A DNA stretch of 64,000 nucleotides from Escherichia coli (GTDB taxonomy: Bacteria > Pseudomonadota > Gammaproteobacteria > Enterobacterales > Enterobacteriaceae): NCBI RefSeq assembly GCF_003018255.1, contig NZ_CP027440.1. The stretch is one strand, 5' to 3'. Positions within the stretch are counted from its first letter, which is position 1. The number at the start of each line of letters is the position of its first letter. The translations under genes and the position numbers were made by a program. The notes under the pieces are model-generated. The model was given only the letters and a program-made list of their open reading frames with translations, was not told the origin of the DNA and did not search any database. This document shows, in pieces, positions 1,568 to 56,280 of this stretch.

Positions 1568-2884
1568 TTAAGACTTCGTAGACTGCTCAAAGCGGCGCAG
1601 TAACTGGTTCCCACGCTCAACGGCGGTATCCAGCGCCTGCTGCGGTGTCTTCTTACCGGTCCACACGCTCTCCAGCTCTTCATCCACAATCACGCGGATC
1701 TGCGGCATGTTGCCCAGACGCAGCCCTTTGGTGAACGGTAACGGCGGCTTATTCAGCATCTGACGCGTCGCGGTATCCGCCCCTGGGTTTTTCTCATAAA
1801 AGCCCTGCTCACGGGTCAGGTCATACGCCGCTTTGGTGATTGGCAGATAACCGGTTTTCTGATGCCACTCGGCAGCGTTTTCTGGCTTCGCGAGGAAGTC
1901 GAGGAACTTCGCCACGCCGGTATACGTTTCTTTATCTTTGCCCTGCATCACCCACAGGCTGGCCCCGCCGATAATGGCGTTTTGCGGTGCATCTTTCGCA
2001 TCGGCGTCGTAAGGCATCATGCCTACGCCGTAGTTAAATTTGGCGTACTCACGAATGTTGGCAAGCGAACCGGAAGAGGCGGTGGTCATCGCGCAATCAC
2101 CGTTATAGAACTTCTCAGTGGATTCATCCTTACGCCCGACGTAGCTGAAATCGCCCTTCTTGTTCATCTCTTCGAGCATAGCGATGTGTTTCACCTGCTC
2201 CGGCTTGTTGAACTCCAGCACCGCGTCTGTGCCGTCAAAGCCGTTGTTTTTGCTGGCAAACGGCAGACCGTTCCAGGCGCTAAAGTTTTCCAGTTGGATC
2301 CAGCCCTGCCAGCCGCTGGCGTAGCCGCACTTCATACCGGAGGCTTTCAGTTTCGCGGCATAGTCCGCCAGATCCTGCCAGGTTTTCGGCGGCTGTTCCG
2401 GGTCTAAACCGGCTTTCTTGAAGGCGTCTTTGTTGTAATAGAGAACAGGAGTCGAGCTATTGAACGGCTGGGAGAGTAAGTGGCCGGTTTTGCTGTCGGA
2501 GTAGTAGCCTGAAACCGTCGGCACAAACTGCGACTCATCGAACTGAATCCCCGCCTCTTTAAACACGTCATATACCGGTTTAATGGCTTTCGACGCCATC
2601 ATGGTGGCGGTGCCAACTTCATAAACCTGCAAAATAGCCGGCGCGTTGCCGGTACGAAATGCGGCAATCCCCGCGCTTAAATTCTGTTCGTAGTTGCCTT
2701 TATAGGTCGGTACAATTTTGTAATCCGGGTTTTCGGCGTTAAAACGTTGGGCCAGAGAATCCACCTCTTTACCCAGTTCCCCTTCCATAGAATGCCAGAA
2801 CGGAATGGTCGTCACTGCCTGTGCATTCCCCATTAACGCCAGTCCGAGCGCCAGTGCTGAAGCTGTATAATGTAACGGTTTCAT
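1568..2884 (-). CDS. ugpB: sn-glycerol-3-phosphate periplasmic binding protein UgpB
   Basis: 438-aa ORF with signal peptide ([23 protein letters not shown]), solute-binding protein fold features. Confidence 0.92.
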
Positions 2885-2889
2885 CGTTT

Positions 2890-3010
2890 ATCTCTCTTGT
2901 TGTACCGGATGCGCGAATTCACGCTTTTTATGCTCGCGGGGTAACATGACATGCTCGAATTACAGAAAAATAACTTTTTTGTTACATTTGTAAGATAGTA
3001 AGGTGTCAGA
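2890..3010 (-). promoter_or_regulatory. ugpB promoter region with Pho-box-like TGTCA repeats
   Basis: Reverse complement contains CTGACACC, TGTAACA and CATGTCATGTTACC motifs upstream of the ugpB start; the ugp operon is Pho-regulated. Confidence 0.4.
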
Positions 3011-3092
3011 AAGATGACAAGGCGGTGACGGCGTGGGTGAGGGAAAATGGGAGATGGGGCACGGATAAAAAGCAGAATGGCTAAGAACCTTG

Positions 3093-3470
3093 TCAGGTAC
3101 CGCGTTGACGCAAGCGGGTAACGATATCTTCTAACGATACTTTTCCCGCCGCCACATCAACCGTCAATTCTACAAACTCTGGGTTTGCAGCAAGTATGAT
3201 GCCGTTACGTTTAAGGAATAATAGCGTGATAAACAGTGCGGTGCGCTTATTACCATCATTAAAGATATGACCGCGCGAGATTGCCAATAGATGCATCGCC
3301 GCCAGCAGCCAAAGATCAGAAACGCCTTCATACTCATACTTATTCAGTACCCGGTACAAAAGCGCTTCTGCTCGCCCTGGATCGGACATTCCTGTTACAC
3401 CTGGTGTAACGCTAAGCAATTTATCGTGGAAATAAATTATCTCCTCCGCTGAGATAAACTGAATGGTCAT
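3093..3470 (-). CDS. doc: Doc (death-on-curing) Fic-family toxin
   Basis: 125 aa; GMSDPGRAEA and HIFNDGNKRTAL (Fic/Doc motif) closely resemble phage P1 Doc; overlaps the upstream antitoxin by 4 bp. Confidence 0.85.
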   Translation of the reverse strand: MTIQFISAEEIIYFHDKLLSVTPGVTGMSDPGRAEALLYRVLNKYEYEGVSDLWLLAAMHLLAISRGHIFNDGNKRTALFITLLFLKRNGIILAANPEFVELTVDVAAGKVSLEDIVTRLRQRGT

Positions 3471-3688
3471 TTATCCGCTAACTCCTTAATTTCGCTGCCA
3501 TGAATAGCCATGATGGCGTCAAATTCTGCGTCCAGTTTAGCCTTCTGGTAACGTTCAAACTCTTCTGCGCTGATAATCACAGCTGCCTTATGACCACGCC
3601 TCGTGATCGTTACCGGAGTACCTGTCGCCGCTGTTTCCAGAACTAATGCAAGGTTCTGCCGCGCTTCGCTGTAGTTCATGGTATGCAT
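3467..3688 (-). CDS. phd: Phd/YefM-family antitoxin
   Basis: MNYSEARQNL ... AAVIISAEEFERYQKAKLDAEF resembles P1 Phd; GGAGGA Shine-Dalgarno upstream; start chosen at MHTMNYSE (an alternative start is at 3680). Confidence 0.8.
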   Translation of the reverse strand: MHTMNYSEARQNLALVLETAATGTPVTITRRGHKAAVIISAEEFERYQKAKLDAEFDAIMAIHGSEIKELADK

Positions 3689-3699
3689 GATATCCTCCA

Positions 3700-3740
3700 T
3701 ATTAAGTACAATTAAATTGTACAACTAACAAGTACAAAAA
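3700..3740 (-). promoter_or_regulatory. Palindromic putative operator in the phd-doc promoter
   Basis: Perfect 17-bp palindrome GTACAATTAAATTGTAC (3706-3722) plus an extra GTACAA half-site directly upstream of phd. Confidence 0.45.
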
Positions 3741-3765
3741 AGGAGTCATTCGACTCCTTTTTACT
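3735..3765 (-). terminator. Rho-independent terminator after livF (bidirectional hairpin)
   Basis: AGGAGTC-ATTC-GACTCCT stem-loop flanked by an A-run and a T-run, just downstream of the livF stop. Confidence 0.65.
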
Positions 3766-3775
3766 CAAAATATTA

Positions 3776-4489
3776 TTACCCGCCTAAATACGCACTTCTC
3801 ACCGCTTCGTTCGCCAGCAGCGCATCGCCAGTATCGGAGAGCACCACATGACCGTTTTCCAGCACGTAGCCGCGATCAGCGAGCTTCAGCGCCTGGTTGG
3901 CGTTCTGCTCGACGAGGAAGATGGTCATCCCCTGCTCGCGCAGTTGCTCGATGGTGTCGAAAATTTGCTGGATGATAATCGGTGCCAGTCCGAGCGAGGG
4001 TTCATCAAGCAATAACAAACGTGGGTTACTCATCAAAGCGCGACCAATCGCCAGCATCTGCTGTTCACCGCCGGACATGGTGCCTGCCCGCTGAACACGG
4101 CGTTCATGCAGACGTGGAAACAGTTCATACACCCACTTTATGCGCTCCTGGAACTGGTCGCGTTCAGCAAAAAAGCCGCCCATCGCCAGATTCTCTTCCA
4201 CCGTCATGCGTGAGAAGACGCGACGTCCTTCCGGGACAATCGCCACCGCTTCGCGCATGATTTTCGCCGTCTGCCAGTCGGTAATGTCTTTATCATCAAA
4301 CACAATTCGCCCGCTGGTGGCGCGTGGGTCGCCGCATAACGTGCCGAGCAAGGTGGTTTTCCCCGCCCCGTTCGCGCCAATCAGCGTGACAATTTCGCCC
4401 TGATTGATATGCAGGCTCACCTCATGCAGCGCCTGGATTTTGCCGTAGTGGGCGCTAACTTTGTCAAAGGACAACATGACTTTTTCCAT
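3776..4489 (-). CDS. livF: Branched-chain amino acid ABC transporter ATPase LivF
   Basis: Walker A GANGAGKTT; start at MEKVMLSFDKV gives 237 aa. Confidence 0.92.
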   Translation of the reverse strand: MEKVMLSFDKVSAHYGKIQALHEVSLHINQGEIVTLIGANGAGKTTLLGTLCGDPRATSGRIVFDDKDITDWQTAKIMREAVAIVPEGRRVFSRMTVEENLAMGGFFAERDQFQERIKWVYELFPRLHERRVQRAGTMSGGEQQMLAIGRALMSNPRLLLLDEPSLGLAPIIIQQIFDTIEQLREQGMTIFLVEQNANQALKLADRGYVLENGHVVLSDTGDALLANEAVRSAYLGG

Positions 4490-4490
4490 C

Positions 4491-5258
4491 TTATGCCTCA
4501 CCTAAATAGGCACGGATCACGTCCGGGTTATTACGGATCTGCTCCGGCGTACCGTTTGCCAGCGGCGTCCCCTGATTGACCACGTAAATTCTGTCTGAAA
4601 TCCCCATCACCAGCTTCATATCGTGTTCAATCAACAAGATAGTGGTGTTGTGATGGTTACGCAGTTCGGCAATCAGCTCATCCAGCTCTTTCGTCTCTTT
4701 CGGGTTAAGACCTGCTGCCGGTTCGTCGAGCATTAAAATCTCCGGCTGCGTTACCATGCAGCGGGCGATCTCCAGACGGCGCTGGTCACCGTAGGCCAGG
4801 TTACTCGCCTGACGGTTAGCGTGTTCGAGCAAACCAATGCGCTCAAGCCAGGTTGCGGCACGGTCGAGCGCTTCGCTCTGGGCGCGGCGGAAAGAAGGCG
4901 TTTTCAACAGGCCGGAGAACAGCCCGGTTTTCAGTTGCTGATGCTGCGCCACCAGCAAGTTTTCAATCACCGTCATTTCACGAAACAGACGCACATGCTG
5001 GAAGGTGCGCACCACGCCCATGCGGGCGATTTGCTGGCCGGGCAAACCTTCCAGATGCTGATCGCGCAGTAAAATAGTGCCACCGGTGGGTTTGTAGAAA
5101 CCGGTCAGGCAGTTAAAAACCGTGGTTTTTCCGGCACCGTTAGGGCCGATTAACGAGACGATCTCCTGCGGGTACAGTTCAAGATTGACGTTATTCACCG
5201 CCAGCAGGCCGCCGAAGCGCATCATCAGGCCGTTAACAGATAATAATGGCTGACTCAT
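4491..5258 (-). CDS. livG: Branched-chain amino acid ABC transporter ATPase LivG
   Basis: 255 aa, Walker [10 protein letters not shown], adjacent to livF and livM. Confidence 0.92.
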
Positions 5259-19724: not shown

Positions 19725-19790
19725 TGAGTGCGATCGGTCCCCTCGCCTCTCTGGGGAGAGGGTAAGGGAAAGGCAGTATCGAAGCCCATC
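19725..19790. repeat. GC-rich box C-like repeat
   Basis: gatcggtcccctcgcctctctggggagagggtaagggaaagg, related to the motif at 1400-1565. Confidence 0.35.
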
Positions 19791-19798
19791 TTCCCCCA

Positions 19799-20044
19799 TC
19801 AACCGCCTTTACGAATCAAATAACGATAAGGCAGTCCATCCGTCTCTTTAGCAACCAGTTCGTGTTCCATAAAGGTACAAAACCCAGGAATATCGCGGGT
19901 CGTCGCCGGATCGTCAGCAATAATCAGCAACGTTTCGCCTGGTTGCATATTGCGCACCGTTTTACGCACCATCATCACCGGTTCCGGGCAGCGCAAGCCA
20001 AGCGCGTCGAGTGTATGGTCAGGACTGGAAAAGAGATCGGTCAT
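19799..20044 (-). CDS. tusA: Sulfur carrier protein TusA
   Basis: 81 aa, conserved LRCPEPVMM Cys motif. Confidence 0.9.
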
Positions 20045-55809: not shown

Positions 55810-55895
55810 TGCGTTAGATGATGGCTATCTCACTCCAGTCAGAGCCACCAACTCAGGGCTGGAAAGTAAAAAACCGACGCAAAGTCGGTTTTTTA
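55810..55895 (+). ncRNA. agrA: agrA small RNA (dinQ antisense-type regulator), approximate bounds
   Basis: Repeat copy complementary to the dinQ 5' UTR segment (gtgggcattctcactccggccagagc) ending in the terminator ccgacgcaaagtcgg plus T-run. Confidence 0.5.
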
Positions 55896-56042
55896 CATCC
55901 GGATTCGGACAAGGCCTGGTACGGCAGCGACCCGATGAAAGTATATAAATCCTCTTTCACCAACATGTATAGCAAACTGTCCCTCCGCCAGCTGAAGAAA
56001 TCGCTAACGCTTGCAATGTTAGCCACTGGCTAATAGTATTGA

Positions 56043-56128
56043 ACCGTTAGATGTGGGCATTCTCACTCCAGCCAGAGCCACCAACTCAGGGCTGGAAAGT
56101 AAAAAACCGACGCAAAGTCGGTTTTTTT
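56043..56128 (+). ncRNA. agrB: agrB small RNA (DinQ translation antitoxin RNA), approximate bounds
   Basis: Second repeat copy ttagatgtgggcattctcactccagccagagccaccaactcagggctggaaag plus identical terminator hairpin and T7 run. Confidence 0.5.
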
Positions 56129-56280
56129 ACGTCCTGATTCAGACCTCCTTTCAAATGAATACCCAACTCAAAATTCACACCTATTACCTTCCTCTGCACT
56201 TACACATTCGTTAAACCATATGTGTTTTTGACTTATCCGCTTCGAAGAGAGACACTACCTGCAACAATCAGGAGCGCAAT

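Follow-up and report, generated by a model that had tools for sequence, protein, structure and literature searches.

How does a toxin-antitoxin pair come to stand between livF and ugpB on an Escherichia coli chromosome, and has it arrived there recently or been lost elsewhere? The question is raised by a stretch of 64,000 nucleotides of E. coli DNA (contig NZ_CP027440.1 of assembly GCF_003018255.1), which we analysed at its full length and call the window. A sequence-only reading had described the pair as a Phd-Doc cassette inserted into a short intergenic region that has no intervening genes in K-12. A literature search on the livF-ugpB phd-doc locus of E. coli found no relevant work, and the account given below combines profile searches, alignments to solved structures and a comparison of E. 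coli genomes and related genera.

A phd-doc operon between livF and ugpB

The genes around the site all lie on the minus strand, in the order livF (3776-4489), phd, doc and ugpB (1568-2884). The features of the locus, in the direction of transcription, are:

3737-3762, minus strand: intrinsic terminator of livF, with an 11-bp stem, a 4-nt loop and a T-run
3694-3698, minus strand: Shine-Dalgarno sequence GGAGG, 5 nt upstream of the phd ATG, read from the sequence
3467-3688, minus strand: phd, antitoxin of 73 aa (PGAP name WP_000557315.1)
3467-3470, minus strand: ATGA (tcat on the plus strand), 4 bp common to both genes, in which phd stops and doc starts
3093-3470, minus strand: doc, toxin of 125 aa (PGAP name WP_000155159.1)
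2885-3068, minus strand: upstream (promoter) region of ugpB, 96-100% identical across 5424 genomes and common to strains without the pair

By these coordinates, the module does lie between the livF terminator and the ugpB upstream region, as had been proposed, and its two genes do overlap by 4 bp at 3467-3470. The antitoxin gene comes first and the toxin gene second on the same strand, which is the arrangement of a type II toxin-antitoxin operon, and the ATGA overlap suggests that their translation is coupled. We placed the start of phd at the ATG at 3688, following the PGAP annotation of genome JNE23-011, which differs from the first 19.7 kb of the window at only 3 positions; a mechanical list of open reading frames gives instead a TTG at 3724. 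Rfam returned no family in or near the phd-doc locus.

Regarding the toxin, Doc scored 83.1 bits on the TIGR01550 (DOC_P1) profile, above its family cut-off of 38.65, over positions 2-120 of the 122-position profile, and it also matched the Pfam Fic family (PF02661, E 7.7e-10). Residues 4-122 aligned without gaps to residues 2-120 of P1 Doc (PDB 3k33_A), with an E value of 7e-32 and 48% identity. The translation contains the intact Fic motif that had been read from the letters (RGHIFNDGNKRTAL, H-I-F-N-D-G-N-K-R at residues 68-76), and the sole change with respect to P1 is A71 to G, at a place where the family motif permits either residue. The Doc-type motif reported by Castro-Roa et al. in 2013 is said to be HxFx(D/N)(A/G)NKR, with a Lys where AMPylating Fic proteins have a Gly. 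Hence Doc is predicted to be a Fic-fold kinase that phosphorylates EF-Tu. The sequence-only reading had also raised the prospect of a Doc made inactive by active-site changes, and no such change is present.

The antitoxin likewise passed its family threshold, with 53.9 bits on TIGR01552 (cut-off 20.8), and matched Pfam PF02604 (PhdYeFM) with an E value of 1.9e-16, while its residues 1-72 aligned to P1 Phd (PDB 3hry_A, E 1.5e-12). Its likeness to P1 Phd, noted at first sight of the sequence, is thus borne out, and the family profiles and P1 structure alignments of both proteins support the reading of the module as a Phd-Doc toxin-antitoxin operon, of type II and related to that of P1. The protein probably consists of an N-terminal domain for DNA binding and dimerisation and a C-terminal segment, residues 52-73, that would neutralise Doc. 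In Salmonella Phd, the hot spots for Doc binding are F56, I59, M60, H63, L67 and L70, with F56 and L70 acting as 'gatekeepers' (PMC9207808). Reading the alignment of orthologues against that work, we found F56, I59, M60, H63 and L70, as well as the G64 kink, to be identical to PhdSTm, and L67 to be replaced by I.

Presence and absence of the pair within E. coli

When complete E. coli genomes were compared at this site, a segment slightly larger than the two genes turned out to be variable:

3069-3736: segment polymorphic in E. coli, carried by 106 of 5426 complete genomes; the others have ~150 bp with two REP elements (BIME)

In the 106 carriers (about 2%), the pair is always single-copy, chromosomal and located at the livF-ugpB site, with 97.0-99.9% identity to the window, and both reading frames are intact in every carrier listed. 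Many of these strains are poultry isolates, and human, pig, soil and monkey isolates are found as well. No plasmid copy of the pair was present among the 5426 E. coli genomes. The spacer between ugpB and livF in K-12 MG1655 is 398 bp long and free of genes, as the sequence-only reading had stated, and CFT073 also has no gene at the site. The comparison with K-12 and other E. coli that had been suggested therein gave a divided answer: the pair is indeed absent from K-12, but it is not specific to this strain.

The left boundary of the segment falls after CACGGATAA (3068). At the right boundary, only the terminator and 15 nt next to livF can still be aligned with non-carriers. Read from the ugpB side, the non-carriers show 184 bp in common, then the ~150 bp with the two REPs, and then a livF terminator that has diverged: its stem, GGAGTC/GACTCC, is common to K-12-type strains, while the sequence around it has changed. 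A search for remnants of phd-doc in the K-12 spacer gave weak similarity over ~30 nt at the left boundary, in addition to the terminator stem. Neither end of the pair shows a convincing target-site duplication or terminal inverted repeat, and the annotation from ugpE to livK lists no transposase or integrase. A 17-nt inverted match of 82% between 3114-3130, inside doc, and 3767-3783, across the livF stop codon, was treated as a chance event.

Next to the segment, the nucleotide sequences of livF and livG (3776-5258) are ~5% apart from those of other E. coli, even of carriers, although the LivF protein is 100% identical. Among core genes of E. coli so deep a synonymous polymorphism is unusual, and it hints at old haplotypes or at recombination. 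The diversity of the segment itself among carriers is up to 3%, and such a lower value for the pair than for its livF/livG flanks also fits a later spread by recombination.

Orthologous loci across the Enterobacteriaceae

To place these observations in a wider frame, relatives of Doc were collected by a scan of one genome per bacterial species, which gave 74 loci, and their flanks were checked by tblastn. A set of 19 loci with a Doc at least 73% identical, which includes a Salmonella Infantis contig, comes from about 12 enterobacterial genera (Salmonella, Kluyvera, Leclercia, Lelliottia, Citrobacter, Phytobacter, Buttiauxella, Franconibacter, Siccibacter, Enterobacter and other Enterobacteriaceae). 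All 19 have livG-livF immediately upstream of phd-doc, and 18 have ugpB immediately downstream, the remaining one (L018) ending before ugpB. The livG-livF-phd-doc context is found in none of the other 40 enterobacterial loci, in which Doc identity is 59% or less. The closest proteins to the window pair from another genus show 86% (Doc) and 88% (Phd) amino-acid identity.

A closer look at 17 orthologues showed a Phd of 73 aa and a Doc of 122-124 aa in each, with the ATGA overlap kept and the HIFNDGNKR motif invariant together with its surroundings. Synonymous sites are saturated in this set (pS 0.68-0.90, n=17) and non-synonymous differences are few (pN 0.07-0.17), so both genes have long been under purifying selection. 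One could argue that the pair is an inactive relic, with a Doc that has lost its toxicity or with Phd alone still functional, for instance in anti-addiction against P1-type plasmids, since chromosomal toxin-antitoxin copies are known to decay, as in the case of ccdO157 (PMC7167474). We give very little credit to this idea in view of the intact frames of the carriers, the invariance of the catalytic motif across genera, a pN far below pS in both genes and the activity of the Salmonella orthologue (PMC9207808).

We then compared neighbour-joining trees of Phd+Doc and of livG+livF. The two agree in their main supported groups, which join Salmonella to Kluyvera and UBA7338 to ESNIH1. In each of them the genus farthest from E. 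coli is Buttiauxella, and E. coli forms a long branch of its own, at roughly similar distances from the other genera. The Phd+Doc tree broadly agrees with the tree of the flanking livGF genes.

As a separate observation, the loci of Salmonella (L004, L013) and of Kluyvera georgiana/genomosp. 3 (L010, L011) are near-identical over ~2650-3370 in Phd, Doc, operator and livF terminator. They also group in the livGF tree, and their likeness may reflect an exchange of the whole locus between genera.

Insertion, re-acquisition or loss

Toxin-antitoxin modules are generally regarded as mobile (PMC7167474), and with K-12 and CFT073 having no gene at the site, one account would be that this strain has recently gained a mobile cassette between livF and ugpB, where nothing stood before. 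Against the comparisons above, this account is highly improbable: the pair occupies the same position in the same orientation in about 12 genera, its tree agrees with that of its flanks, no target-site duplication or direct repeats flank it, no mobility gene is annotated from ugpE to livK, and it is never found on a plasmid. Besides, the site without the pair is not 'empty', as it has two REPs in the operon's place. The word 'inserted', used for the cassette by the sequence-only reading, does not hold, and the locus does not look like a recent mobile cassette or genomic islet.

A different history has to be weighed with more care. No representative of another Escherichia species with the locus was returned by the scan of one genome per species, so ancestral retention needs several independent losses. 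The pair could instead have been lost early in Escherichia and re-acquired at the same site from another enterobacterial genus by way of the livF/ugpB flanks, and then spread by recombination. Such a course would account for the 98% of E. coli genomes without the pair, for a pair less diverse among carriers (up to 3%) than livF/livG (about 5%), and for an adjoining livF terminator region that has diverged from the K-12 type, and the nearly identical copies shared by Salmonella and Kluyvera also speak for it. We nevertheless consider it unlikely, because no close donor is at hand (the best matches being those of 86% and 88% given above), the synonymous sites are saturated with respect to every genus, the E. 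coli pair stands on its own long branch about as far from other genera as the liv genes do, and the 184 bp on the ugpB side as well as LivF are typical E. coli sequence.

In our opinion, it is therefore probable from the sequence comparisons that the locus is a functional chromosomal Phd-Doc type II operon, the orthologue of STM3559/STM3558, ancestral at livF-ugpB and lost by most E. coli. The operon would have stood between livF and ugpB since before the enterobacterial genera diverged, as the comparative data suggest; most E. coli, K-12 included, would have lost it and now have REPs at the site, and about 2% would have kept it. The two-REP state of K-12 is thus more likely to represent a loss than the window a gain, and this is also the simplest way to read the distribution.

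Three GTAC-centred sites upstream of phd

A perfect 17-bp palindrome with an extra half-site had been pointed out upstream of phd, and both are present. The palindrome, GTACAATTAAATTGTAC, lies at 3706-3722 with 8-nt arms and a central A, and AAGTACAA is found again at 3730-3737. The suggestion that the palindrome is a candidate operator holds in part: an autoregulatory operator just upstream of phd is plausible, but the 17-mer is not the conserved unit, its Salmonella counterpart being GTACAATAAACATGTAC. The elements that recur among the orthologous loci are shorter:

3730-3737, minus strand: putative operator site 1, the most distant from phd, TTGTACTT (GTAC core 3732-3735), immediately following the T-run of the livF terminator
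3717-3724, minus strand: putative operator site 2, in the middle, TTGTACAA (GTAC core 3719-3722), itself a perfect palindrome of 8 bp
3704-3711, minus strand: putative operator site 3, closest to phd, reading TTGTACTT on the coding strand (GTAC core 3706-3709), 13 bp from site 2

Written on the coding strand, the upstream regions of the window, Salmonella and P1 are:

Window: TTTTTT-GTAC-TTGTTAGTT-GTAC-AATTTAATT-GTAC-TTAATATGGAGGATATCATG
Salmonella: TTTTTTT-GTAC-ATGTTTGTT-GTAC-AATAAACAT-GTAC-AACTGGGGAGG
P1: TATAATTGT-GTAC-ACATAACGA-GTAC-ACGAGG

Three GTAC cores with 13/13-bp spacing occur in 16 of the 19 orthologous loci. The other three, from Phytobacter, Franconibacter and Enterobacter R1, lack the core of site 1 and retain the two cores nearest phd; the core of site 3 is present in all 19. 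At site 2, TGTACAAT is invariant in the window and in 18 of the 19 loci. To estimate how often this arrangement would appear by chance, we counted GTAC in the 64-kb window (n=145). The pair GTAC-N9-GTAC starts at just two positions, 3706 and 3719, and the triple at 3706 alone, the estimated chance expectations being ~0.3 pairs and ~0.001 triples. The candidate regulatory unit that is conserved is the set of three GTAC-centred sites at 13-bp spacing, and the 17-bp palindrome would be a by-product of two neighbouring sites.

The promoter is less evident. A sigma-70 promoter scan upstream of phd returned none reaching 9 of 12 matches, and inspection of the orthologous loci by eye showed no -35 element conserved across genera; its position would fall in the T-run of the livF terminator. 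Site 2 overlaps a -10-like TACAAT at 3716-3721, which agrees with 5/6 of the -10 consensus. This hexamer is part of the central sequence TTGTACAAT, which does not vary in 18 of the 19 loci; it is a likely -10 element and the sole conserved candidate noticed by eye. As we read the region, phd would have a weak promoter that begins in the livF terminator T-run and has no -35 element, and the three putative Phd-dimer sites would extend over its spacer, its -10 and its start region.

Proposed mode of action and relation to ugp

By homology with the studied pairs, the following mode of action can be proposed. Dimers of Phd would bind, through their N-terminal domain, the three GTAC sites over TACAAT and the start region of their own promoter, and the Phd:Doc ratio would decide whether Doc acts as a co-repressor or relieves repression, the conditional cooperativity described for P1. 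In P1, this form of control rests on two adjacent sites bridged by Doc (PMC4803016, PMC13034048). At the protein level, residues 52-73 of Phd would bind Doc and block the kinase; once the labile Phd is degraded, the Doc toxin would be freed and phosphorylate EF-Tu at Thr382/383, and translation would stop.

The ugp promoter itself is unaltered, since 2885-3068 is the same in carriers and non-carriers. From the doc stop codon (3093) to ugpB we found neither a terminator-like site nor an unusually stable fold (z-score -1.1), so read-through into ugpB is possible. The phd-doc operon is expected to be tightly self-repressed.

A more speculative step is to see in phd-doc a domesticated, site-fixed pair kept for the benefit of the host, with the stoichiometry of the three-site operator, the coupling to ugp without a terminator, or both, as the possible basis. 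We regard this as rather improbable. If it were the case, a three-site operator (P1 has two) could set a different Phd:Doc stoichiometry for conditional cooperativity, de-repression of phd-doc could, with no terminator ahead of ugpB, be linked to the expression of ugp, and the pair might also protect against P1-type addiction.

Other features of the window

The spacer between ugpA and ugpB (1393-1567) measures 175 bp in the window and 97 bp in K-12 and most strains. It contains an extra GC-rich element of ~160 nt with inverted repeats (CCCTCACCCCGGCCCTCTCCCCAGAGGGGCGAGAG ... CCCCTCTCCCTTTGGGAGAGGGTTAGGGTGAGGG), present at 80% coverage or more in 317 of the 5426 E. coli genomes, which presumably resembles a box C-type intergenic repeat. 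In the zntA-tusA spacer (19729-19800), the window departs from JNE23-011, to which it is near-identical up to there (3 differences in the first 19.7 kb), owing to an indel beside the repeat GATCGGTCCCCTCGCCTCTCTGGGGAGAGGGTAAGGG, which is related to the repeat of the ugpA-ugpB spacer.

The interval between nikR and yhhJ, at ~30.2-37.2 kb, is occupied by an Rhs element that comprises rhsC, ybfB and an RHS fragment, after which come a transposase of ISEc1 (ISAs1 family) and a second, truncated copy; these coordinates were taken from JNE23-011 and may be shifted by the indel at ~19.7 kb. Two copies of AgrB were identified by Rfam near gorA/arsR, at 55814-55897 and 56047-56130 (101 and 108 bits). 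AgrB serves as antisense RNA in the dinQ type I toxin system, and its presence is an ordinary K-12-type feature. Finally, the presence of chuS at the window's far end shows that the strain has the chu locus for haem uptake.

Implications

The pair as such is already known: RefSeq names both proteins, and the Salmonella orthologue has been characterised biochemically, which leaves little practical gain. The present analysis adds a direction for the event, probably a loss in K-12 and not a gain here, together with the operon's constant place across genera and a putative operator of three sites. A toxin-antitoxin pair, of a kind usually deemed mobile, would have kept one chromosomal address across many enterobacterial genera, and its polymorphism in E. 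coli, where ~2% of genomes have the pair and the rest have REPs, provides a natural system in which to ask why chromosomal toxin-antitoxin pairs stay or go. The conserved, putative three-site operator would in turn be a testable variant of the P1 model of conditional cooperativity.

Comparison with known systems

The closest studied relative of the window pair is the chromosomal pair of Salmonella, not that of P1. The Salmonella Infantis contig reads livM-livG-livF-phd-doc-ugpB-ugpA-ugpE, with its toxin-antitoxin genes cross-referenced to STM3559 and STM3558; a literature search for STM3558 gave only a retracted paper, which we used only to link the locus tag to phd-doc. The Salmonella pair shares with the window the livF-ugpB position and orientation, the ATGA overlap, protein lengths within 3 residues, the three GTAC cores at 13 bp, an identical catalytic motif and nearly identical Phd hot spots. 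The identities are 81% for Doc and 78% for Phd, and the differences include the Doc C-terminus, which is RQRGT in the window and RA in Salmonella, 3 residues shorter, and hot spot 67 of Phd, which is L in Salmonella and I in the window. Given that the synonymous sites are saturated between them, the Salmonella and E. coli pairs are not the product of a recent transfer. Both biochemistry and persistence work have been published on Salmonella Phd-Doc (PMC9207808, PMC7167474). De Castro et al. reported that Doc of S. Typhimurium causes growth arrest with phosphorylation of EF-Tu at T383, that the EF-Tu changes T383A or T383V relieve its toxicity, that Phd and Doc bind with picomolar affinity, and that either full-length Phd or a Phd 52-73 peptide inhibits Doc (PMC9207808).

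The P1 module has the same fold families and gene order, a Phd of 73 aa as in the window, and a Doc motif of the form HIFND(A/G)NKR, at identities to the window of 48% for Doc and 45% for Phd. Both have GTAC-centred sites 13 bp apart between promoter and phd, which form the operator in P1 and a putative one here. The P1 operator consists of two sites downstream of an annotated -10 with the consensus TATAAT, whereas the window has three putative sites, the middle one with the -10-like TACAAT. The P1 genes overlap by 1 bp, the end of phd being the start base of doc, as against 4 bp here, and the P1 module resides on a plasmid prophage while the window pair is chromosomal and fixed at one site.

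YefM-YoeB is a further case. Its antitoxin belongs to the same Phd/YefM fold family, although the window Phd scored only 33.8 bits on the YefM equivalog profile (cut-off 121), and its operator is built of TGTACA-core palindromes whose centres lie ~12 bp from each other, one of which overlaps the -10 element (PMC4803016). The number of sites differs (two at 12 bp versus three putative ones at 13 bp in the window), and the toxins are unrelated, YoeB being an RNase and Doc a kinase.

As for the alternation of states at the site, a precedent exists in ccdO157 at folA-apaH, where a toxin-antitoxin pair and REP sequences alternate at an intergenic site in E. coli (PMC7167474). The alternation is common to both systems, while family and locus differ. 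Unlike that of ccdO157, the occupied state of the phd-doc site is common to many other genera, which points to loss rather than gain.
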